Position numbers and translations under genes: made by a program. Source: a virus. From it: 64,000 nt of DNA. The stretch lies in the IMG/VR virus record IMGVR_UViG_3300002835_000013; one strand, written 5' to 3'. Every line of letters starts with the position of its first letter. Position 1 is the first letter of the stretch. The notes beneath the pieces are model-generated. The model had not been told where the DNA came from. It was given only the letters and a program-made list of their open reading frames with translations, and did no database searches. Shown in pieces: positions 8,249 through 64,000 of the stretch.

Positions 8249-8473
8249 TTATAAAGGAAGTTGTGAGGTATTAGATTTCTTGAGAAAGTGGAGTTCTTCG
8301 GCTTCTAGTTTGATTTTGGATTTGAGAACACCCGAGACTAACTTTGCTGCGGTCTCTATCTCGAATCCTGTCTGTTCACAATACATAACGACGGCATCGA
8401 TATAAGGAATGTCTTTCATATAGACCAGTTCCTCAATCTCTAAACTAAACTTTTGTATGTCTTCGGGGGTCAT
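8249..8473 (-). CDS. gp33: Late transcription coactivator gp33
   Basis: FSLEIEELV...YIDAVV.YC...LKSKIKLEAEELHFL...LPL; gp33-gp59-gp32 synteny. Confidence 0.9.
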   Translation of the reverse strand: MTPEDIQKFSLEIEELVYMKDIPYIDAVVMYCEQTGFEIETAAKLVSGVLKSKIKLEAEELHFLKKSNTSQLPL

Positions 8474-8496
8474 TTGTTCCTCTGGTTCATAATATA

Positions 8497-8812
8497 AAAG
8501 GTGATTTTTCTGTTTCGAGGAAAACCACCAAACCCAATGAACTTACGCTGCTAGAGCGAAGTCAAATGGTACATTGTCGTTTGCTGCACCTGCAATTTGC
8601 CTTTGGTCTCCTTACGACCTTACTGTATCCCGTCGAACCTGTTCGCCCCCATCAAAGATACACTGTTGGACCCTCTGTCTTGTTCCAACTTTTCTCATAA
8701 AGAGTTGCGGGTTCCTATCTTTTCAGTCTAGGCAGTGTATCTATGATGGAGGCGGTGGGAATCGCACCCACGTCCAAGAAACCTATATTTCGTCTCTCAA
8801 CGACCTCGGCAA
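8497..8812 (-). ncRNA. ssrA: Circularly permuted (two-piece) tmRNA
   Basis: Acceptor piece ending GTGGG-TGCGATT-CCCAC-CGCCTCC-A (3' end at 8747) precedes the coding piece starting GGGGGCGAACAGGTTCGAC (8650); G3-U70 pair; tag ORF 8584-8543 ANDNVPFDFALAA*; terminator-like hairpin near 8500. Confidence 0.92.
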
Positions 8813-8820
8813 TTCTATTT

Positions 8821-8983
8821 ATCGTCTCCATCAAAGATACACTCTTAGCGTCAAAGTGATGGACTTGAACCATCATACCTTTCTTTGATATTCAGATATA
8901 CCGAACGTTACGATATACCCTTAGTCGGCCAACTCGCTATGTTAGATAATTAGTCTAACGAGTGTATCCATGATGAAGACGAT
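8821..8983 (-). ncRNA. Candidate structured ncRNA closed by a 24-nt inverted repeat and containing a T-loop hairpin
   Basis: Arms 8821-8844 and 8960-8983; TGATGG-TTCAAGT-CCATCA hairpin; own TATAAATA late promoter. Confidence 0.6.
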
Positions 8984-19978: not shown

Positions 19979-20044
19979 ATTATAGCACATGGAATGGAAG
20001 ATGCAAGCGAAATCGTATGTCAACGACTGCGACAGGTTGTCGCA
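19979..20044 (-). promoter_or_regulatory. Early promoter cassette 1 with upstream TGCGACA-N3-TGTCGCA palindrome
   Basis: CTTGCA...TGTGCTATAAT; palindrome 20028-20044. Confidence 0.85.
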
Positions 20045-21653: not shown

Positions 21654-22253
21654 ATGTTATTTATATCCAACAAGTATACCACTTGGTATTTCTCCCTTAT
21701 AGAGAATCGCAAATCAACTATTCCAGAAGGATATGTTGAGAAGCATCATATTATCCCCAAATCTATCGGAGGAACCGATGACTCCGATAATCTTGTCGCA
21801 TTGACCGCAAGAGAACATTTTTTAGCACATTGGTTACTAACCAAAATGACTAAAGATAATGAACAAGTAAAAATGAAACATGCTTTGGGTGGAATGACTG
21901 GTAATAATCACAATGGAAGGACTCTATCATCTTATCAATATGCGATTTGTAGGCAATCATTTAGTGAAGCACGAAAAGGCGTTATTTCACCCCATATGCT
22001 AAGATCGGGTGAAGATCATCATATGTTCGGAAAGAAAAGACCAAGACAATCACTCCTTATGAGCGGTGAAAATAATCCAAACTATGGCAAGTTTGGTGAA
22101 AATCACCACTGTTATGGTAAGAAACATAAAGACGATAGGACAGAGAGAATGACTAAAACTTTACAGTCATTAGGCAAACTACCCTGTCCTAACTGTGGCG
22201 AAATGATTTCACCGTTGAACAGTCAACACAAAAGACGTTGTATCAACCTTTGA
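21654..22253 (+). CDS. Free-standing HNH homing endonuclease with NUMOD3-like repeats
   Basis: EKHHIIPKSIGG...NLVALTAREHFLAH; GENNPNYGK; C-terminal CPNC. Confidence 0.88.
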   Translation: MLFISNKYTTWYFSLIENRKSTIPEGYVEKHHIIPKSIGGTDDSDNLVALTAREHFLAHWLLTKMTKDNEQVKMKHALGGMTGNNHNGRTLSSYQYAICRQSFSEARKGVISPHMLRSGEDHHMFGKKRPRQSLLMSGENNPNYGKFGENHHCYGKKHKDDRTERMTKTLQSLGKLPCPNCGEMISPLNSQHKRRCINL

Positions 22254-23469
22254 TGTTGACCACCTGACGGAGACGGTGGACAATCTCAACAAGGTCATCC
22301 TGGGCAGCCATGACCGCACCGATATCCTTGTAAGCAGCCGGCGACTCGTCGATAACATCGGCATCCTTACGGCACTCGATACCCTCGGTCGCCTTGATAT
22401 GATCCTCTAGCGTGATAGCCTTACGTGCCGCATTGCGAGACATACGACGACCAGCGCCGTGAGAACATGAACAAAACGACTCATGATTACCAAGACCACG
22501 AACGATAAACGAACCCGTTCCCATCGAACCCGGTATGATACCGAGGTCGTTCTTACGAGCCCGAACAGCACCCTTGCGGGTCACATACACATTTTCTCCA
22601 AAGTGGTTCTCCTTGGAGATATAGTTGTGATGGCAGTTCACAGCCTTTTCGTCAGATACAACGAATGCCGGCAAACGCCCACGAAGAACCTTTAGCACAG
22701 CGTCCATCATAACCTGACGGTTGAGGGCAGCAAACTCCTGTGCCCACGATACAGCCTCCACATAATCATCGAATAGCGTCGTGTTTTCTACCAGATAGGA
22801 CAAGTCCTGATCCGGCAGATACGGCAAGATATGATAGCGTTCCATCTCACGCTTTGCAGCTTCGATGAAATACTGACCTATCTTGTTACCAACACCACGA
22901 GAACCAGAGTGTAGCATTACCCACACATAGTCGGCCTCGTCCAGACACAATTCGATAAAGTGATTACCCGTGCCAAGCGTTCCCATAAACTCGAAGGTCT
23001 TATGAGAAGCAATCTTCGGATGCTTTGCTAAGATAGCGTCATAACGAGACTTCAACACCGCCCAAGCATCTATGGCAGAACGGGACGCAAAGTTCGAGTT
23101 CCACGTTCCTTCGTCGTTCTTACCACCGTTGTCCGTGCGACCATGCGGCACTGCGGCCTCGATAGCAGAACGAAGCGGAGCAAGATTATCCGGTAAATCG
23201 TTCGCCGTCAGTGACAAGCGAACAGCCATCATACCGCAACCGATATCAACACCAACCGCAGCCGGAACCACAGCACCCTTCGTTGCTATAACAGAACCAA
23301 CCGTAGCACCCTTGCCAAGATGAACGTCCGGCATAACCGCTACATGCTTATACACGAACGGCAAGGACGCTATATTTTCCAACTGCGTGCGAGCGTCGGC
23401 TTCGACCTCAACACCTTCGCACCACATCTTGAGCGGCGCACCACGACCTTGGACGAACTGATAAGCCAT
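22243..23469 (-). CDS. rtcB: RNA-splicing/repair ligase RtcB
   Basis: MPDVH.G.G, VGVDIGCG, GTLG.GNHF, HSGSRG, HHN, SCSHGAGR, DE.P.AYK. Confidence 0.97.
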   Translation of the reverse strand: MAYQFVQGRGAPLKMWCEGVEVEADARTQLENIASLPFVYKHVAVMPDVHLGKGATVGSVIATKGAVVPAAVGVDIGCGMMAVRLSLTANDLPDNLAPLRSAIEAAVPHGRTDNGGKNDEGTWNSNFASRSAIDAWAVLKSRYDAILAKHPKIASHKTFEFMGTLGTGNHFIELCLDEADYVWVMLHSGSRGVGNKIGQYFIEAAKREMERYHILPYLPDQDLSYLVENTTLFDDYVEAVSWAQEFAALNRQVMMDAVLKVLRGRLPAFVVSDEKAVNCHHNYISKENHFGENVYVTRKGAVRARKNDLGIIPGSMGTGSFIVRGLGNHESFCSCSHGAGRRMSRNAARKAITLEDHIKATEGIECRKDADVIDESPAAYKDIGAVMAAQDDLVEIVHRLRQVVNIKG

Positions 23470-23791: not shown

Positions 23792-24121
23792 TTATTCTTT
23801 CACTCCTTCAGGAAGCATCCAAATGTTTACACCGTGAACCATAAAGTCCTTGGCATCTTTAAGTCCATACCCAGTAGCATGACGCACAGCCTTAATGGCA
23901 TTGATGAACATGCGATATTCTTTTGAAGCATGAGTACGAATCTTTAGATCATACTTAATACCACGCAGAAGTCCCATAAGGACAGCGTTCTGTAAGTCCT
24001 CGCCCATTCCTTCTTTCAGTGAACGCCACATCTTCATGCCCTGCTCGTCTCCGTAATACTTTGTGATATCACGGAGAAGGTTGCGAGCACTAACAATAAG
24101 ACTTGTAGGAAGCTCAGCCAT
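23792..24121 (-). CDS. Protein with ribosomal bL12 C-terminal-domain-like motif
   Basis: INAIKAVRHATGYGLKDAKDF. Confidence 0.6.
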   Translation of the reverse strand: MAELPTSLIVSARNLLRDITKYYGDEQGMKMWRSLKEGMGEDLQNAVLMGLLRGIKYDLKIRTHASKEYRMFINAIKAVRHATGYGLKDAKDFMVHGVNIWMLPEGVKE

Positions 24122-24338
24122 AATATTGAACCTTTTCTTCTAGCCACTTTTTATAATCGTCGTGACTGAGATAATATTCAAGCACTACTTCAATAGCATC
24201 TCTCAAGTCATCCTCCTCTGGCATGGGATTTACAGCCATTGAACGATAATCATGTTTTAGATTTTCTACAACCAAATAGTCCACTTGGTCTTGATCTAAA
24301 TCAACTGTCATTATCCTCTTCATGTTCCTCATCCTCAT
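24114..24338 (-). CDS. Hypothetical protein
   Basis: ORF in early operon. Confidence 0.55.
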   Translation of the reverse strand: MRMRNMKRIMTVDLDQDQVDYLVVENLKHDYRSMAVNPMPEEDDLRDAIEVVLEYYLSHDDYKKWLEEKVQYYG

Positions 24339-24732
24339 ATAGTTCGTTTATAGTCTTCTCGTATTCAGTAGGTAGGCGTTCGCATGTTACGCTCTCACTG
24401 TAGTAGCCGTTTGAAGTTCCCAACCAACGAACAGTTACAGATCCCTTAATGGTACGAAAGTTATAGAAAGTCCAAGTGGCACTTTCATAATCCGCACCAC
24501 CGTCCTGCGAGTCCTCACGAGCCTCAAGAATTGGCACTCCTACAAGGTCGTTAAGATCACCTACAATGTCCTCAATGCGAACACTCTCGCAACAATCCTG
24601 CTCGTGATAGAACTTAAAGGAAGGAGTATCGCCTGCTCCAACGAACAAGAGAACATCGTTGTCCTTTTCACCCTCGACATGGTGAAAGGTTAATCCTTCC
24701 ATTTGGCTTAGATTATCAGCAAAATACTTCAT
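24301..24732 (-). CDS. Conserved hypothetical phage protein
   Basis: H.QDCCE.V..EDI.GDL...WTFY...T.KG.V..RW.G.SNGYYSE. Confidence 0.75.
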   Translation of the reverse strand: MKYFADNLSQMEGLTFHHVEGEKDNDVLLFVGAGDTPSFKFYHEQDCCESVRIEDIVGDLNDLVGVPILEAREDSQDGGADYESATWTFYNFRTIKGSVTVRWLGTSNGYYSESVTCERLPTEYEKTINELYEDEEHEEDNDS

Positions 24733-24792
24733 TCTACAACCTCAACTCTATCTTCTGCCTTCATATACCAATCGGGAGCAGTATCGCTAACA

Positions 24793-24981
24793 TTAGTCAT
24801 TATCTATCTCCTTCTCATGCCAATCGACGAGGATGCTTTCCTTGCAATGCATGTCTCTTTGCCATTGTATGGCATGGTTAAAATCCCAAAGCACACCATT
24901 GGTCGCCTCAAGAGAACTATCCGCGGTAACTACATAAACGTATCTGCGTTCTTCCACTAGTGTCACTTCATACGTCGTCAT
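24793..24981 (-). CDS. Hypothetical protein
   Basis: ORF translationally coupled to its upstream neighbour. Confidence 0.5.
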   Translation of the reverse strand: MTTYEVTLVEERRYVYVVTADSSLEATNGVLWDFNHAIQWQRDMHCKESILVDWHEKEIDND

Positions 24982-25127
24982 TCAGGCACCATCCAAATGT
25001 TTACACCGTGAACCATAAAGGTCTTAGTGTAGATTACGACACCGACATTACCATAAAGTTCGGCAACAGTCGGCAGAAGTTCGGTGACAGGAACATAAAC
25101 AGTTTTGTCCAGATTTGCTTCTGCCAT
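24978..25127 (-). CDS. 49-aa micro-protein ending NIWMVPE (not in ORF track)
   Basis: AGGTGAG RBS; shares 40 nt with the 3' end of the 23792-24121 gene. Confidence 0.55.
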   Translation of the reverse strand: MAEANLDKTVYVPVTELLPTVAELYGNVGVVIYTKTFMVHGVNIWMVPE

Positions 25128-25134
25128 TTCTCAC

Positions 25135-25353
25135 CTATTGATTTGCCGAGTCGTCAAAAGCATTGACGTTCGGAACTGTATATTCATTGCCAGTCGCAAA
25201 GATGACCGTGTCGCCTTCAACAACTTCCGCAACCGCACGAAGGTCCCAAAAGCGATGCCAGAAGTCCGGCTTGCCAAAGACCTTGAGGGCGTTATATACA
25301 CGCTCGTCCTTGAAACCGACAAAGTGGACAGCCATCGTTTCCTCATTTCTCAT
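25135..25353 (-). CDS. Hypothetical early protein
   Basis: HFVGF...A.KVFG.PDF.H..WD.RA; downstream of promoter cassette 3. Confidence 0.7.
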   Translation of the reverse strand: MRNEETMAVHFVGFKDERVYNALKVFGKPDFWHRFWDLRAVAEVVEGDTVIFATGNEYTVPNVNAFDDSANQ

Positions 25354-25364
25354 TCTATGGACAT

Positions 25365-25433
25365 ATTATAGCACAAGGAATGGAAGATGCAAGCGAAATC
25401 GTATGTAAACGGGTGCGACATTCTGTCGCACCC
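25365..25433 (-). promoter_or_regulatory. Early promoter cassette 3
   Basis: CTTGCA...TGCTATAAT; GGGTGCGACA-TTC-TGTCGCACCC palindrome 25411-25433. Confidence 0.85.
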
Positions 25434-25438
25434 TTAGT

Positions 25439-25564
25439 CTATTGATTTTGTAGCAAGATTGTATTAGGCACATACCAAATGCTGGATGCGGTATATGGGC
25501 AGGTACTATAATCATAACTCACCCGAATTCCAGCACCATAGAGACTGACATAAAACCGAGCCAT
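25439..25564 (-). CDS. 41-aa micro-protein (IWYVPNT)
   Basis: Coupled TAATG start; divergent member of the micro-ORF family. Confidence 0.5.
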   Translation of the reverse strand: MARFYVSLYGAGIRVSYDYSTCPYTASSIWYVPNTILLQNQ

Positions 25565-25668
25565 TAGTTTACTCCATCAAGAGCCATGATAAGAACGATA
25601 CCGAAGATTAGACCGACAGTAACAACACCAAGGGCCATAATCTGAACCATTTTACTTTCGTCTAACAT
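25564..25668 (-). CDS. 34-aa single-helix membrane peptide
   Basis: GGAGG RBS; hydrophobic core. Confidence 0.5.
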   Translation of the reverse strand: MLDESKMVQIMALGVVTVGLIFGIVLIMALDGVN

Positions 25669-25669
25669 T

Positions 25670-25786
25670 TTAGTCCTCCAGAGTGCCAGGAACAACCCAT
25701 ATTGAACATGAAGTAAACATATTACCACCAAAGCTAGCATATGCTACACAATGACCATATGAAGGAATATACCTATGAATAACCAT
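25670..25786 (-). CDS. 38-aa micro-protein (WVVPGTLED family)
   Basis: GGAGG RBS inside previous ORF; MVIHRY...IWVVPGTLED. Confidence 0.6.
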   Translation of the reverse strand: MVIHRYIPSYGHCVAYASFGGNMFTSCSIWVVPGTLED

Positions 25787-25787
25787 A

Positions 25788-25913
25788 TCATGCCTCCAAA
25801 GTTCCGGGAACAACCCAATAAGATTGATGATCACTATTAGCAGCATATGCCACAACATGACCAAACACACCGAGATTGGCGTATATCATCAGATGATTAA
25901 CATATACTATCAT
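25788..25913 (-). CDS. 41-aa micro-protein (WVVPGTLEA family)
   Basis: GGAGG RBS; MIVYVN...YWVVPGTLEA. Confidence 0.6.
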   Translation of the reverse strand: MIVYVNHLMIYANLGVFGHVVAYAANSDHQSYWVVPGTLEA

Positions 25914-25914
25914 A

Positions 25915-26043
25915 TCAATCCTCCAGAGTGCCGGGAACAATCCAATAAGAGATATCAGCATCGGGATAGATTTCATCCTGAAGCCAGGTGATAGCAGAAT
26001 AACCACGGTGACCATCGTGATAGATAGAATAGAAAACTGTCAT
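25915..26043 (-). CDS. 42-aa micro-protein (WIVPGTLED family)
   Basis: GGAGG RBS; MTVFYS...YWIVPGTLED. Confidence 0.6.
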   Translation of the reverse strand: MTVFYSIYHDGHRGYSAITWLQDEIYPDADISYWIVPGTLED

Positions 26044-26246
26044 TTCAGACCTCCGTCAGAATAGCGACAAGCGCAAGAGATATAGGCGCACCGAATAGAA
26101 CGAAAAAGAGAATAACGTCGGACACTATCGGTTCTCCGCATTAGAGATAAGATCGGGATATAACCACACACAAACACCGTGCCAAATCAACTGGTGCTCG
26201 GCCCAGTTATTGATCTGGGCAATGATGTGAACTGGGATATTATTCA

Positions 26247-26474
26247 TTATGCAGCCTCCTGACCGAGTTTATCCGTATCATACACAATCGACTCGCCGAG
26301 AAAGTCTTCGTTGGCACGGGCACCAACTACACGGCGAGAGATAATATAACGACCATACGCTTCACCCTCAAAATCGACCAGAGCCGATTGGGCATCTGCC
26401 AGCGAATAATAAACGCCGAGCATATAATCACCCTCATAATCGATGCAACCGAAGAGAACGAAAACTTCCATCAC
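26247..26474 (-). CDS. Hypothetical early protein
   Basis: YEG...LGVY motif; RBS. Confidence 0.6.
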   Translation of the reverse strand: MMEVFVLFGCIDYEGDYMLGVYYSLADAQSALVDFEGEAYGRYIISRRVVGARANEDFLGESIVYDTDKLGQEAA

Positions 26475-26641
26475 TTATCTCCTACTTTGATATTTTTACC
26501 AACCGTGAAACCACGCTTCGGACGTTTAGACGATTTCACCTTGGTGATTTTACCACCGTTTTCAGCCCAACGAAGAAGGGCGAGACGCAAAACCACATCT
26601 TTGCCGTCTTGGTTTTTGATATGAAAGCGAGTATTTGACAT
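26471..26641 (-). CDS. 56-aa basic protein with a GGKITK (SutA RNAP-binding-like) motif
   Basis: First ORF after promoter cassette 4; RWAENGGKITKV. Confidence 0.5.
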   Translation of the reverse strand: MSNTRFHIKNQDGKDVVLRLALLRWAENGGKITKVKSSKRPKRGFTVGKNIKVGDK

Positions 26642-26668
26642 GTTGGAACCTTTCTCGATTATGGGAAT

Positions 26669-26735
26669 ATATTAGCACATCGGAACGGAAGGGTCAACCA
26701 AAATCGTTTGTCAACGACTGCGACAGGTTGTCGCA
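26669..26735 (-). promoter_or_regulatory. Early promoter cassette 4
   Basis: TTGACC-17-TAATAT; palindrome 26719-26735. Confidence 0.85.
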
Positions 26736-26764
26736 CATTGATCGCAGTCGTTGACATTCTTCTA

Positions 26765-27001
26765 TCAAATATCAACATAGCGAATGGTAACATTGTCGAT
26801 ATTATATTCAACAATTTCGACGCTATATTGATCTAGATCAATCTTTTCTAAGACTTCTAGTAATACTTCTACGGATTCACGAAACTCTTTTGCTTCGGTC
26901 AGATTGTTGAATAACGGATCAAACTCTTGACGGATATTGTCGTTTATGTGATCATAAACAAGAATGGAATAATAGTTGGACATGATTTTTCCTTTCATCA
27001 T
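26765..27001 (-). CDS. Hypothetical acidic protein
   Basis: Single ORF between promoter cassettes 4 and 5. Confidence 0.6.
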   Translation of the reverse strand: MMKGKIMSNYYSILVYDHINDNIRQEFDPLFNNLTEAKEFRESVEVLLEVLEKIDLDQYSVEIVEYNIDNVTIRYVDI

Positions 27002-27007
27002 AGGAAC

Positions 27008-27074
27008 ATAATACCACGGTAAAAGGAAGGAGTCAATAGAAATCTAATTGTAAACAGTGCGACAGGATGTCGCA
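27008..27074 (-). promoter_or_regulatory. Early promoter cassette 5
   Basis: TTGACT-17-TATTAT; palindrome 27058-27074. Confidence 0.85.
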
Positions 27075-27076
27075 CC

Positions 27077-27319
27077 TCAGCTATTGCCAAGCTCAAGGCT
27101 CCGGCGCATCTTCCAGACCAGCTTTCTTTCTAGCTGATAAACCCGTGCCTGCGACAGGCCAAGCTCCTCGGCGATGGCATCGATGGTCTGGTTCTGATAG
27201 AAACGACGGACGGCGATGAATTGTAAACGTGGGCTAAGGCATTCGATAGCCCGTTTACAGACAACCTTACGGTCAAGGTCATGCATATTGATAAGTTGGA
27301 GAAAAGTTTCGTTTACCAT
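27077..27319 (-). CDS. Stand-alone sigma-70 region 4-like HTH protein
   Basis: LSPR...V.RRF...T...IAEELGLSQARVYQLE.K. Confidence 0.8.
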   Translation of the reverse strand: MVNETFLQLINMHDLDRKVVCKRAIECLSPRLQFIAVRRFYQNQTIDAIAEELGLSQARVYQLERKLVWKMRRSLELGNS

Positions 27320-27639
27320 TATCGGACGTCCGTATTGAGGGCAGGAGAGAGTTCACGGATAAGCTCACGCTCACGGATATGGGCAGCGGACTTGCCACGC
27401 ACCACTTCGTAATAGCAGACTTCAAATGCGTCTGGACCATACTTGCGGATCGCTTTACATAGGGCCCAGTCACGTCCCTCGGTCAGGGCACGGTTTACAT
27501 GCTTCTGCCAGCGACGGATAACAGACTTGGACACAGCCGACTTGTCTACATACGTCACGCCGATATATTCCAGTCCGTTTACAGACAAGGAATAGATGAC
27601 ATGCTTACGGTCGGTGCGGGCTTTGCGCTTCTTGATCAT
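27319..27639 (-). CDS. GIY-YIG nuclease-domain protein, probably leaderless
   Basis: VIY...YIG.T...R...H; E..LI....LN; ATG lies 6 nt after the -10 box. Confidence 0.75.
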   Translation of the reverse strand: MIKKRKARTDRKHVIYSLSVNGLEYIGVTYVDKSAVSKSVIRRWQKHVNRALTEGRDWALCKAIRKYGPDAFEVCYYEVVRGKSAAHIRERELIRELSPALNTDVR

Positions 27640-27645
27640 GGTCAC

Positions 27646-27711
27646 ATTATAGCACAATGGAACCGAGATGCAAGCGAAATCGTTTGTAAACGAGTGCGAC
27701 AGGTTGTCGCA
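27646..27711 (-). promoter_or_regulatory. Early promoter cassette 6
   Basis: CTTGCA...TGCTATAAT; palindrome 27695-27711. Confidence 0.85.
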
Positions 27712-27776
27712 CCTCTAAGTGACTGATTTCATTAATGATTTTATAAGTGATTGATTATAAAGCGATTTTATCTTAG

Positions 27777-28856
27777 TCAATTCTTCGATAGTATCAGATA
27801 CTCCGCATTAGGTTCATTGACCTCGTTTTTACAATTACCTGACTTGATTGCAAATGTCTGACTATTTGGTTTATGATCAAACTTAAATATATTTATCAGT
27901 TTTTGATGATCGCCAATAATTTCTATTAGGTTATCTATCTTTACTTTGGAACGATTACTATATGATATAAGTGTGTATTCTGTATCAAACTTTGTCAATA
28001 AAGATTTGAAAGAATCCTCGACGACAGAATTGTTTGTGCTTTCAAATTCCGAGATAGCACCTTTGATCTTATCACTCGATACATCATATCTTCTTTTAGA
28101 CGATCCGACTAAAACAGGACAGTCGTTCTTACATACTGTTGTCCATAGATGATAATAAGAAAAGTATCTTACTCGGGTCGTCTTTGTTTTTTCATTTGAT
28201 GTTCCATATGGAGGATCGAAGTAGCAAAGATCAAAACTATCCTTAACATCGAAGACATTTTTAGTATAAACTCTATGATCTAGATTATCTATTACATAGT
28301 TAGGAACTTTAAGATGTAAAGGTTTATACGTTTTTGAAGACCAATTCTTTAGATATGAGACCTGATGACCCATATCATTTGATACATTATCTAGAGCCAA
28401 CAACAGACTTGTTAATAACACGGATTTATCTATACAATCCATTGGATAAAGAATGTCTATCTCATTTCTAATTGCATCCAATTTTTCCGTAACATGCATT
28501 TGGAACGGTCTTTTAAAGCCATCTTCTTGAATCGAAGATCCATCTCTATCATAACCTCCGTAATTGATAGAGAACCATCCAACTGTTGGCGTTAAACTAT
28601 TTAAATGATCTACAATAGACTTATAATAACTATGAGGCTGTCTTGCTAACAAATAACATTCGGCAATATGTTTGGAATAGATTGCCATATCATTGCTAGT
28701 CGTAACGAATCCTTTGTGTTTGAAAAACTGTGAGACTCTGGTGCTACCAGAAAATCCATCGAGGACATTTTTTAAAGAAATGTCCTCAAGAATTAGATCA
28801 ATCTTTGGTAGTATCTTATTCTTACTGCCAGAGTATCTTATAGATTCATATCTCAT
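27777..28856 (-). CDS. DNA adenine methyltransferase (D12 / Dam-like class)
   Basis: RY.GSK, DGFSGS, YFDPPY, ISYS, EYL. Confidence 0.9.
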   Translation of the reverse strand: MRYESIRYSGSKNKILPKIDLILEDISLKNVLDGFSGSTRVSQFFKHKGFVTTSNDMAIYSKHIAECYLLARQPHSYYKSIVDHLNSLTPTVGWFSINYGGYDRDGSSIQEDGFKRPFQMHVTEKLDAIRNEIDILYPMDCIDKSVLLTSLLLALDNVSNDMGHQVSYLKNWSSKTYKPLHLKVPNYVIDNLDHRVYTKNVFDVKDSFDLCYFDPPYGTSNEKTKTTRVRYFSYYHLWTTVCKNDCPVLVGSSKRRYDVSSDKIKGAISEFESTNNSVVEDSFKSLLTKFDTEYTLISYSNRSKVKIDNLIEIIGDHQKLINIFKFDHKPNSQTFAIKSGNCKNEVNEPNAEYLILSKN

Positions 28857-29382
28857 TAACTATTTTTCCCACTCTTGAAACCCATGATAGAGGATAATTG
28901 ATTGTATGTTCTTTATTCTTCGAATTGGCACCACGGCGAGTTAGATTGTCTTCTGTGTAATCTAGAAATGCCGTGGTACTTACCTTATAAATGTATTTGA
29001 GTGTTAGTCCTTCAAACACACCACAATAAAATGCTTTATTTCTGGTGATGCGTTCAAGACTATCAGGCTTTCTTTCAGGATCGGAGAACATGCAATCGAT
29101 AGCAAAAGTTCCCGACTTTTTTCCATTGTTAGCAACTTTTTCCTGACAAGAAAGATACTCATAATAATTGATACCATCAGTAGCATCGGGGAGATGCTTG
29201 TTCTTAATGATCTTATGACCAAGACTATCTGCCATGATAACTTCTTTGATAAGACCTGGTTGTGTAATGTTATCAATTCCAGATTTTCTGAAAAGTTCTT
29301 GTGCTTTGTTTAGATGTTTAATTGCTTCACGAATGTCATCTGTAACATCGATCAGAATAGCGGATTCACTTATATTTCTCAT
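28846..29382 (-). CDS. PvuII-like restriction endonuclease
   Basis: End-to-end resemblance to PvuII as recalled (Q.L..K.GI..I.Q, DA.D...YE, G..L..IY, P...V...G); overlaps the MTase start. Confidence 0.6.
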   Translation of the reverse strand: MRNISESAILIDVTDDIREAIKHLNKAQELFRKSGIDNITQPGLIKEVIMADSLGHKIIKNKHLPDATDGINYYEYLSCQEKVANNGKKSGTFAIDCMFSDPERKPDSLERITRNKAFYCGVFEGLTLKYIYKVSTTAFLDYTEDNLTRRGANSKNKEHTINYPLSWVSRVGKIVNEI

Positions 29383-29403
29383 AACGACACCTTATAAAGT
29401 TAT

Positions 29404-62340: not shown

Positions 62341-62414
62341 TGGATCAGGAACCTGGATTCGAACCAAGATTAACGGAGTCAGAGTCCGCTGTTCTACCGT
62401 TGAACTATTCCTGA
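62341..62414 (-). tRNA. tRNA-Gln(CUG)
   Basis: Cloverleaf, anticodon CTG, encoded CCA. Confidence 0.92.
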
Positions 62415-62415
62415 A

Positions 62416-62490
62416 TGGATCGGGGACTAGGACTCGAACCTAGAAAGTCGGAACCAAAATCCGACGTTATGCCAATTTAACTATCCCCGA
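62416..62490 (-). tRNA. tRNA-Gln(UUG)
   Basis: Cloverleaf, anticodon TTG, CCA. Confidence 0.92.
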
Positions 62491-62497
62491 ATAAAGA

Positions 62498-62589
62498 TGG
62501 TGCGTGAGGTAGGATTCGAACCTACAATGTTACCACAAAGGGAACGGATTTACAGTCCGCTGCAACACCACCGCCGTTGCCGCTCACAC
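62498..62589 (-). tRNA. tRNA-Tyr(GUA)
   Basis: Anticodon GTA, long variable arm, enlarged D arm, CCA. Confidence 0.85.
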
Positions 62590-62712
62590 ATATTCCATAC
62601 GCCTTATCGGTTTAGCCCTTTAGCTAATGAAGTCAGCAATCCGATATTCACGGGCATTCCCTTCTGTTATTCCCGCTAGGCCTCTCCTGCGTATCTAGAA
62701 AGCAGGATAAAC

Positions 62713-62786
62713 TGGTTGTCCCTACTGGTAACGATCCAGTGTCTATGTGTTATCAGCACATTGCTCTACCTTTGAGCTAAGGGACA
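62713..62786 (-). tRNA. tRNA-Ile(GAU)
   Basis: Anticodon GAT, T-loop ATCGTTA, CCA. Confidence 0.88.
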
Positions 62787-62793
62787 GTAAACT

Positions 62794-63267
62794 TTAGAAA
62801 TCGGCACGATCCTGGTTACACTCAAACACATAGTAACCAGCTTCACGCCACGCATCAATAACACGATGCCGATCCTCGAACACTCCCATCACTTTATATC
62901 GAGGATGAAACAGAGAAAGATACTCATTTAGAATATCCAACTTGATCTTATCATCGTCGGTACGATCACCACTCTTACGCATGAAAAGATCGCCATCAGG
63001 AAAATCGTAATCACAATGCTGCTGCAACCAACGGAGAGTAACCGCACGAAAACGCTCGTCACGGGCAGTAATAACAATAACCTTATCACCAGTCTTATGT
63101 AGAGTATTCATAAGATGCATAACGGCTTCGTAAGGTTCATCCTTATCCTGTGCCGCAAAGAAAGCATCCCAGTCCTTCGTGGTGTTCTGGGTAAGGTGCT
63201 TGATACGGTGCAGGTTGTTAGCCAGCGTTCCATCAATATCGAATATCCACAAGTTCCGCTTATTCAT
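62794..63267 (-). CDS. HAD-family phosphatase (PseT/Pnkp 3'-phosphatase-like domain)
   Basis: FDIDGTLA, ITAR, L.MR..GD...D..IK, EDR..V...W; embedded in the tRNA cluster. Confidence 0.85.
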   Translation of the reverse strand: MNKRNLWIFDIDGTLANNLHRIKHLTQNTTKDWDAFFAAQDKDEPYEAVMHLMNTLHKTGDKVIVITARDERFRAVTLRWLQQHCDYDFPDGDLFMRKSGDRTDDDKIKLDILNEYLSLFHPRYKVMGVFEDRHRVIDAWREAGYYVFECNQDRADF

Positions 63268-63291
63268 TCCATTTCCTTTCTCATTATGTCT

Positions 63292-63321
63292 TATAATAGC
63301 ACATCCGGAATGGAATGTCAA
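63292..63321 (-). promoter_or_regulatory. Early-type promoter within the tRNA cluster
   Basis: TTGACA-17-TATTAT with a TTCCATTCC spacer like the other early promoters. Confidence 0.7.
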
Positions 63322-63353
63322 GTGGCTATGTTTACAATCGTTTGTCTACATTC

Positions 63354-63427
63354 TGGTGCCGGCTAGAGGAATCGAACCTCTGTTTGATGATTACGAGTCA
63401 ACTGTAATACCATTATACTAAGCCGGC
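63354..63427 (-). tRNA. tRNA-Thr(CGU)
   Basis: Cloverleaf, anticodon CGT, CCA. Confidence 0.9.
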
Positions 63428-63431
63428 AATC

Positions 63432-63505
63432 TGGTGCTCCTGCCCGGTAACGATCCGAGTTTTCACCCTTACCAAGGGTGTGTAATACCTTTATACTACA
63501 AGAGC
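63432..63505 (-). tRNA. tRNA-Thr(GGU)
   Basis: Cloverleaf, anticodon GGT, CCA. Confidence 0.9.
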
Positions 63506-63508
63506 AAA

Positions 63509-63582
63509 TGGCACTGGGTCCAGGTATCGATCCTGGTCTCCAAGATCCACAATCTCGGGTGCTACCATTACACTAACCCAGC
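63509..63582 (-). tRNA. tRNA-His(GUG)
   Basis: Anticodon GTG, no encoded G-1, G discriminator, CCA. Confidence 0.88.
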
Positions 63583-63586
63583 AAAT

Positions 63587-63663
63587 TGGTGCCCTCGGTC
63601 AGACTCGAACTGACACTAAGTTGGGTTTGAATCAACTGCCTCTGCCAATTGGGCTACGAGGGC
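63587..63663 (-). tRNA. tRNA-Leu(CAA) with short variable loop
   Basis: Anticodon CAA, CCA. Confidence 0.85.
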
Positions 63664-63844
63664 ATAACACCTATCATCAACTCTGAATACTGATGATACT
63701 TTATCTTATGTATTGGATTATTGTTATAAGGATCAGTATCATACCAACGATGCTCACCAATAACAATACCTATACAATCATAACCGTTTTCTTTATCTTC
63801 TTTCTTCCACATCGGAAGATATGTGATTTTATAATATAACATCA

Positions 63845-63920
63845 TGGTGCTTCCCCTTAGAATCAAACTAAGTCCTTCTGCTCTTCAGGCAGTCGTGCGG
63901 ATCACCTACACCAGAGAAGC
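63845..63920 (-). tRNA. tRNA-Phe(GAA)
   Basis: Anticodon GAA, CCA. Confidence 0.85.
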
Positions 63921-63925
63921 ATAAA

Positions 63926-64000
63926 TGGTGCTTCGTATGGGTATCGATCCCATCTTTCCCGCTTGAGAGGCGAGTGTCCTAGCCAATAGACGAACGAAGC
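63926..64000 (-). tRNA. tRNA-Glu(CUC)
   Basis: Cloverleaf, anticodon CTC, CCA; 5' end at the window edge. Confidence 0.88.

Follow-up and report, generated by a model that had tools for sequence, protein, structure and literature searches.

The 64,000-nt IMG/VR virus record IMGVR_UViG_3300002835_000013, the whole of which we refer to as the window, derives from an uncultivated, large freshwater phage with a genome of about 170 kb. On its minus strand the window carries four paralogous micro-genes, here called A, B, C and D, each with its own Shine-Dalgarno (SD) site (GGAGG or GGAG, 6–9 nt upstream of the ATG) and all sharing the C-terminal end S-x-W-x-V-P-G/N-T. Sequence comparison indicates that they belong to an undescribed family of phage microproteins maintained by selection on the translated product, and supports the view that copies are gained, lost or exchanged by recombination at a repeat lying in the coding junctions. 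The four genes are as follows.

25915..26043, minus strand: micro-gene A, 42 amino acids, MTVFYS...SYWIVPGTLED; core type.
25788..25913, minus strand: micro-gene B, 41 amino acids, ending SYWVVPGTLEA (...GVFGHVVAYAANSDHQSYWVVPGTLEA); accessory type.
25670..25786, minus strand: micro-gene C, 38 amino acids, MVIHRYIPSYGHCVAY...SIWVVPGTLED; accessory type.
25439..25564, minus strand: micro-gene D, 41 amino acids, MARFYVSLYGAGI...SIWYVPNTILLQNQ; last gene of the operon; match to the family hidden Markov model (HMM) at E 2e-10.

The C-terminus shared by A, B and C is S-[YI]-W-[IV]-V-P-G-T-L-E-[DA], and D, which ends S-I-W-Y-V-P-N-T-ILLQNQ, retains W-x-V-P-x-T with neither the LED nor a coupled gene downstream. 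The coordinates and translations given for these four open reading frames (ORFs) in an earlier sequence-only reading of the locus are exact, and its remark that some had been missed or mis-started is right for B and C, which appear in the mechanical ORF list as proteins of 75 and 66 residues with out-of-frame starts inside the preceding gene. The short forms are supported as the correct ones because GGAGG lies 6–9 nt before their ATG codons and because the starts of orthologues agree with them. The fourth ORF, previously described as divergent, is a paralog with its own SD site, and A–D are the only genes of the window that score with the family HMM. A central GH motif ascribed to the array holds for A–C; across the family alignments only the G is common. 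We infer from sequence that A–D are expressed and translated.

A profile built from the four peptides retrieved 31 homologues in 90%-identity clusters from a collection of 5.8 billion proteins, and a profile of 32 members, run against 1.84 billion representatives, retrieved 45 clusters at 50% identity. Nearly all of these 45 clusters are stand-alone proteins of 35–57 residues; the few longer ones (61–82 residues) are mis-started calls and two long matches (P0044 and P0057) are artefacts. Contigs yielded 31 further loci (20 from IMG/VR and 11 from JGI/ENA metagenomes), with several more found by exact look-up, and every family member comes from a metagenomic or viral contig. A near-identity search with window positions 24000–28000 found nothing in 50,697 phage records, tblastn produced nothing beyond a chance match (E 6) in 50,697 phage records, and a pattern scan of one genome each from 185,579 prokaryote species found no relative. 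For 67 members at E<=10, Pfam-A offered no recurrent family; neither PHROGs v4 nor PADLOC matched the microproteins, and a profile search of the PDB sequences found no match at E<=10. The motifs VPGTLED, WIVPGT, WVVPGT and WAVPGT occur in no paper of the full-text literature searched. On this sequence evidence, the family is real, confined to phages and undescribed.

Several candidate relatives were set aside. The match of P0044 to the family profile is the sum of 25 Kelch-repeat fragments and was dismissed. P0057 is a subtilase/ricin-lectin protein with six near-identical 140-residue repeats that contribute 4–6 bits each, so that its total score is again a sum; its repeat resembles a ricin-type trefoil subdomain in which S-L-W-E-V-P replaces Q-x-W, which prompted the idea that the micro-genes encode parts of a split beta-trefoil. 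This idea was dropped after hhalign of the family against P0057:610-900 returned a probability of 1%, and the fold-search lists for the model of A contain no trefoil. A wider 'W-x-x-P' family was also considered, but the ORFs that would have joined it, 24978-25127 (...GVNIWMVPE) and 26125-26247 (...VWLYPD), have no family HMM score and were excluded.

Selection on the encoded protein is indicated along the whole ORF. In 30 distinct tail sequences the same residues S, W, V, P, G and T recur throughout, with free variation among their codons: S is encoded by TCA, TCC, TCT, TCG, AGC and AGT, V by GTT, GTC and GTG, P by CCT, CCC and CCG, G by all four of its codons and T by ACA, ACG and ACT. When 21 distinct A-type genes are aligned by codon, three or four synonymous codons encode each of the invariant residues V3, S6, R14, I32, S33, G39 and T40, and two encode F4, D31 and P38; the median pairwise dN/dS is 0.285 over 167 pairs. 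Because invariant residues are encoded by two to four synonymous codons and dN/dS is about 0.29, we read the pattern as purifying selection on the translated product. The sequence-only reading had noted synonymous variation in the tail and had taken the peptide to be selected; that variation is real and much wider across relatives, and selection at the protein level is borne out by it and by dN/dS. The N-termini, which had been called variable, are conserved as well, with a first strand of the form M-x-V-F/Y-Y in the family and a nearly invariant MTVFY start in the A type.

The end of each upstream gene is embedded in a 40-nt junction repeat (family D1), whose three copies in the window are 73–100% identical and comprise the tail codons together with the SD site and ATG of the next gene.

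25911..25950, minus strand: junction repeat copy 1, spanning the A tail codons, the SD site (GGAGG), the stop codon and the start codon ATG of the B gene.
25784..25823, minus strand: junction repeat copy 2, with the B tail, the SD site and the ATG of C.
25666..25705, minus strand: junction repeat copy 3, with the C tail, the SD site and the ATG of TM34, a hydrophobic micro-gene described below.

As the sequence-only reading had proposed, the repeat thus supplies the ribosome-binding site of the following gene. The L-E-D codons (CTGGAGGA) are always placed 6–10 nt before the next ATG, and upon insertions they shift together with the next start (LNLED, LSLED, LDLLEV, INDMDELEDIFI); they are missing in the uncoupled D and in members such as P0039, P0042 and P0048. 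Because CTGGAGGA tracks the next ATG and is missing where no gene is coupled, L-E-D appears to be largely an imprint of the next gene's ribosome-binding site, and W-x-V-P-G-T-[LI] a motif of the protein.

Two hydrophobic micro-genes flank the array, with sequence and order kept in two related phage groups (TM26, MTDIVLF...; TM34, MMDETKVMQ...).

26045..26125, minus strand: TM26, 26 amino acids (VSDVILFFVLFGAPISLALVAILTEV); conserved neighbour upstream of A.
25564..25668, minus strand: TM34, 34 amino acids (MLDESKMVQIMALG...); between C and D.

TM26 is found in two of the three related phage groups, and TM34 has a weak match to phrog_4839 (E 0.019). The earlier description of the locus needs correcting in that TM34 separates C from D, and TM26 precedes A. 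Related contigs (numbered L001 onwards) fall into three groups in which the number of copies ranges from one to four, a variation across phages that the sequence-only reading had suggested looking for.

Group 1 (near-identical to the window), window and L007: TM26-A-B-C-TM34-D.
Group 1, L010: TM26-A-B-TM34, without D.
Group 1, L011: TM26-A-TM34-D.
Group 1, L009: TM26-A, then the start of TM34, where the contig ends.
Group 1, L008: TM26-A-[unrelated 40-residue gene]-TM34-D.
Group 2, L016, L017, L021, L023, L024 and L026: the A type alone, extended by a long acidic tail.
Group 2, L015, L018, L022 and L027: one to three further types upstream of TM26.
Group 3, L001-L006 and L012-L014: A, an adjacent type and a dispersed third type.

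Core type A is present in nearly all of the related phage loci examined. The other members come and go: B (orthologues P0007, P0008, P0010, P0011, P0037 and P0055) is absent in L011, L009 and L008, C (orthologues P0009, P0012 and P0058) is absent in L008-L011, D (orthologues P0004 and P0005) is absent in L010, and L015 carries three other types together with A. At least eight paralog types can be recognised, each with orthologues in other phages. These comparisons describe a small multigene family, with A as its core and the others as accessory members; the earlier picture of a diversifying library, or a hypervariable one, does not fit at least eight stable types with orthologues and a dN/dS of about 0.29.

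In the group 1 alignment every indel starts and ends inside the junction repeat, and in L011, L009 and L010 the body of the upstream gene is joined exactly to junction copy 3. In the first two of these contigs the body of A runs into TGGGTTGTTCCCGGCACTCTGGAGGACTAAAATGTTAGACG, one base different from the C/TM34 junction of the window, and in L010 the body of B runs into that same junction. Because the indel boundaries fall inside the repeat, unequal homologous recombination between junction copies of 27–40 nt is a well-supported explanation of the indels, one that would leave all products in frame, and the earlier suggestion that the array is expandable by recombination at the repeat gains support from the breakpoints. 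The foreign gene of L008 (L008:3482-3604; 40 residues, MNYSPFLVRCRK..., unrelated to the family) begins at the same junction ATG and stands in place of window B and C (25670-25913); this change is a cassette swap and not a simple deletion. A smaller difference is seen within B, which has 21 extra bases relative to L010 (7 codons, YVNHLMI; window 25882-25902, minus strand); the short direct repeat TGATA(G)TATA lies on either side of them, suggesting that the start of the gene was duplicated by slippage.

An AlphaFold2 model of A, built on a 67-row alignment, is confident (mean pLDDT 86.9, pTM 0.61) and predicts a three-stranded mini beta-sheet with strands at residues 2–7, 13–18 and 30–35. In the model MTVFY forms strand 1, D-I-S-Y-W-I forms strand 3, and V-P-G-T makes an ordered turn after strand 3; residues 31–40 average a pLDDT of 87 and the last two residues 64. 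The sequence-only reading had regarded the conserved end as a common docking or processing tail. Because S-Y-W-I is modelled as the third strand and is followed by an ordered Pro-Gly turn, the model argues that the tail belongs to the mini-domain and is not a free docking tag, with only L-E-D left loose. The paralog types differ in the turn between strands 1 and 2, in strand 2 and in the long loop between strands 2 and 3, and from the alignments we would expect all types to share the fold. Foldseek of the A model against the PDB gave E >= 4, a search of BFVD gave E >= 1.8, an exhaustive fold search gave a best Z of 3.3, and in a shape search of the ESM Atlas nothing stands out (TM 0.68 to a 72-residue viral cluster); a feature-based search of the Atlas likewise produced no usable match. 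The family has a median net charge of −5, a median pI of 4.1 and an aromaticity of 0.18, the net charge of A being −6, and the microproteins contain no hydrophobic segment or signal peptide.

A–D are part of an operon of nine tightly spaced small genes (26641-25439, minus strand) downstream of a sigma-70-like promoter, in which the stop and start of neighbouring genes are 1 nt apart or overlap. Its remaining members and its control elements are listed here.

26471-26641, minus strand: gene for a basic protein of 56 amino acids; first of the nine operon genes.
26247-26474, minus strand: gene for a 75-residue protein with a weak DUF7336/phrog_3002 match.
26125-26247, minus strand: small ORF of 40 amino acids.
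26669..26697, minus strand: sigma-70-like promoter, TTGACC, 17 nt, TG-n-TAATAT; consensus match only.
26719..26735, no strand assigned: palindrome TGCGACA-N3-TGTCGCA (here TGCGACA-ACC-TGTCGCA); part of the upstream cassette.
25411..25432, minus strand: stem-loop GGGTGCGACA-GAA-TGTCGCACCC immediately downstream of D; −19.8 kcal/mol, z −5.25.

The promoter sits just downstream of the palindrome and probably drives the operon. Expression of the micro-genes from an early promoter cassette, the fourth in the earlier numbering, had been claimed; the sigma-70-like promoter is the only candidate upstream of the operon, and its early timing we only infer. The stem-loop after D likely closes the operon and opens the next cassette; lacking a U-tract, it was not called as an intrinsic terminator in the terminator scan. 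Six copies of TGCGACA-N3-TGTCGCA occur in the window (at 20028, 21252, 25414, 26719, 27058 and 27695) where 0.01 would be expected by chance, and those copies that were read consist of a stable stem-loop followed by a sigma-70-like promoter, built as in the promoter-early stem-loop (PeSL) cassettes of T4-type phages (PMC2839356; PMC4122927).

Some further differences and neighbouring genes were recorded. L007, otherwise near-identical to the window, has RNaseH, DUF6433 and SprT-like genes upstream of the operon (L007:1-1900 against window 26700-29400), where the window has genes for a sigma-region-4 protein and a GIY-YIG protein as well as a methyltransferase/endonuclease pair. The difference amounts to a further large replacement, with its boundary at or near a cassette. 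The 49-residue ORF at 24978-25127 (minus strand), which ends in FMVHGVNIWMVPE, is a conserved gene with orthologues ending GVQIWMVPE in L015-L024, and its last 48 nt are repeated with 90% identity at 23804-23851 (repeat D2), the 3' end of a bL12-CTD-like gene at 23792-24121 (Ribosomal_L12 E 3.8e-5). Elsewhere in the window are a permuted transfer-messenger RNA (tmRNA) gene (8452-8836, minus strand), whose tag is AANDNVPFDFALAA, and ten clustered tRNA genes (62341-64000, minus strand). The tag resembles those of alphaproteobacteria. The RtcB ligase at 22243-23469 (minus strand) has its best matches in alphaproteobacterial phages (Mesorhizobium, 70.5% identity; Erythrobacter, 68%; Sphingobium, 65%), a weak host clue that agrees with the tag in pointing to an alphaproteobacterium.

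We propose that the array represents a multigene family specific to this lineage, whose members are translated into folded microproteins, and that it lies in a hyperplastic region of small genes. Each gene encodes 38–51 residues conserved at the protein level; the next, translationally coupled gene has its SD site in the L-E-D codons, and unequal homologous recombination at the junction would add, remove or swap whole gene cassettes in frame. The gene, selection and recombination layers of this proposal we hold jointly with high confidence. The proteins, mostly acidic and rich in aromatic residues, would act early in the cytoplasm by binding or inhibiting host proteins, in host takeover or counter-defence, and the paralog types would differ in their targets. 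This functional layer is tentative, and it is for us a possible rather than a probable reading. It is suggested by the host-type promoter, the tiny size, the acidic core type, the aromatic richness and the strain-variable accessory paralogs, all of which fit binders of host factors. For the explanation as a whole, from selected and folded microproteins recombining at the junction to early binders of host proteins, our confidence is moderate.

Several observations pull the other way. The model of the B type is of low confidence (pLDDT 63), so that the fold is confident for the A type only, and the charges of B, C and D (−2, −1 and +1) mean that an acidic binder describes A best. Neither structure nor sequence comparison turned up a neighbour from which a function could be read, the fold matches reaching a Z of 3.3 at best; the group 1 indels fit gain and loss alike; and the conserved membrane micro-genes flanking the array could point to a membrane-linked role. 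A more specific form of the proposal, in which a fixed frame of two strands (MTVFY... and ...SYWxVPGT) presents a variable hairpin turn and loop as a natural miniature binding scaffold, and paralog cassettes mixed by in-frame junction recombination neutralise host defence or housekeeping proteins, strikes us as doubtful as it stands, and would, if true, describe a modular, recombination-driven counter-defence repertoire made from the smallest folded units yet seen in phages.

The flanking genes are the starting point of the alternative that survives best, in which A works together with TM26 and TM34 as a membrane-linked module, for example in superinfection exclusion, lysis timing or the control of a host membrane protein, with the extra paralogs as variants of a soluble subunit. 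Two of the three related phage groups retain the order TM26 - A - TM34, and the stop of A overlaps the start of TM34 (ATATGA) in one group, with 1 nt between stop and start in the window, a proximity that suggests coupled, stoichiometric synthesis. However, L016, L017, L018 and L027 have unrelated genes inserted between TM26 and A, neither TM gene is recognisable by its motif in the third group (L001-L006, L012-L014), and the microproteins themselves contain neither a hydrophobic segment nor a signal peptide. We therefore consider a membrane-linked module unlikely, if less so than the two alternatives that follow.

Conservation of the tail at the RNA or DNA level is an improbable account, and one to which we give little credence. 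It would have the V-P-G codons (GUUCCyGG) mask the SD region (yUGG-A-GGA) until the upstream ORF is translated, with recombination homogenising the junction and the peptides mattering little. The masking hairpin can form in 95% of pair cells over 20 distinct junctions, compared with 20–61% in slid controls, and third codon positions vary freely in the loop but only between pair-compatible bases in the stem. Yet there are no compensatory double changes, a score as high as the observed one arises in 364 of 500 shuffles, the stability is no better than that of shuffled sequence (z −0.9 to +1.6), RNAalifold recovers no consensus structure, and the structure was derived from the same sequences used to score it. 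The sequence-only reading had itself named a purely RNA-level or ribosome-binding explanation of the tail as what would overturn it; W-x-V-P-x-T persists in D, where there is no downstream SD site, and in P0039, P0042 and P0048, which lack LED, while V3, F4, R14 and D31 are invariant outside the junction with synonymous variation and the low dN/dS extends over the whole ORF. The hairpin may make a minor contribution to translational coupling. Finally, the ORFs could be precursors of ribosomally synthesised and post-translationally modified peptides (RiPPs), in which a variable core lies between conserved recognition sequences at the N- and C-termini. The layout, with tandem ORFs of about 40 residues and conserved ends, is superficially similar, but this reading is highly improbable: only small ORFs are present in the operon and next to it, none with the domains of a modifying enzyme, protease or exporter; a compact folded domain is predicted for the A type; and the middle is conserved within each paralog type.

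Under the proposed explanation of a folded microprotein family, a single 40-nt stretch would hold the codons of a structural strand, the ribosome-binding site of the next gene and the recombination point for gain or loss of whole genes. Gene callers routinely overlook micro-genes of about 40 codons or give them the wrong start, as happened here to two of three copies, and the present case supports by comparison the reality of such genes, through selection on the protein, a core fold predicted with confidence and restriction to one uncultivated phage group. If the products bind host proteins, they are short enough for chemical synthesis and direct screening as inhibitors. Variable small early genes in hyperplastic regions are a familiar phenomenon; the microprotein family itself is new.

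Among known proteins, the WW domain (PF00397), recognised by two signature Trp 20–22 residues apart and a conserved Pro, is similar in several respects: it spans about 40 residues, folds as a small antiparallel sheet of three strands, has a G-x-x-aromatic pattern in strand 2 and carries W-x-x-P towards its C-terminus. However, none of the 67 members matches PF00397 even at E 10, the family alignments have no conserved N-terminal Trp, the A-type loop between strands 2 and 3 is 11 residues long, and no WW chain is among the 50 fold matches listed for the three-stranded A model (best Z 3.3). The internal proteins IPI-III of T4 have an N-terminal capsid targeting sequence that ends in an L/I-x-E cleavage site. 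On reading the alignments we found no such T4-type capsid targeting motif in the N-termini of the family, and in its tail L and E are adjacent rather than arranged as L-x-E.

T7 Gp2 (PDB 2lmc) binds the jaw of RNA polymerase, and phi29 p56 (PDB 2le2, 8ail) is an inhibitor of uracil-DNA glycosylase; as is proposed for the microproteins, both are acidic phage proteins of very small size that act early and are built on a beta-sheet. They were the top small chains in the exhaustive fold search (Gp2, Z 3.3, rmsd 2.8, 39 residues aligned; p56, Z 3.1, rmsd 2.9, 39 aligned), values at noise level for a 42-residue sheet. The search of PDB sequences showed no similarity of either to the family, and, in contrast to it, Gp2 and p56 have a helix and are single-copy. 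We regard the resemblance as an analogy of kind, and not as homology or evidence for a target.

For the arrangement of the genes, the closest described mechanism, by analogy, is found in T4-type phages, where PeSL cassettes mediate modular shuffling and mark indel boundaries in hyperplastic regions (PMC2839356; PMC4122927). In both cases short repeats at gene boundaries mark the insertion, deletion or replacement of whole genes between close phages, and the window itself has six stem-loop and promoter cassettes of that build, two of which bracket the operon. The defining combination of a repeated intergenic stem-loop followed by an early sigma-70 promoter is found in these bracketing cassettes and not in the array, whose indel junctions contain no promoter or stable stem-loop, unlike the terminator/promoter unit of a PeSL. 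The exchange point in the array is instead a coding junction, composed of the last nine or so codons together with the SD site, the stop and the next ATG, and exchanges at this point keep the reading frame and, as predicted for A, the third strand of the protein.

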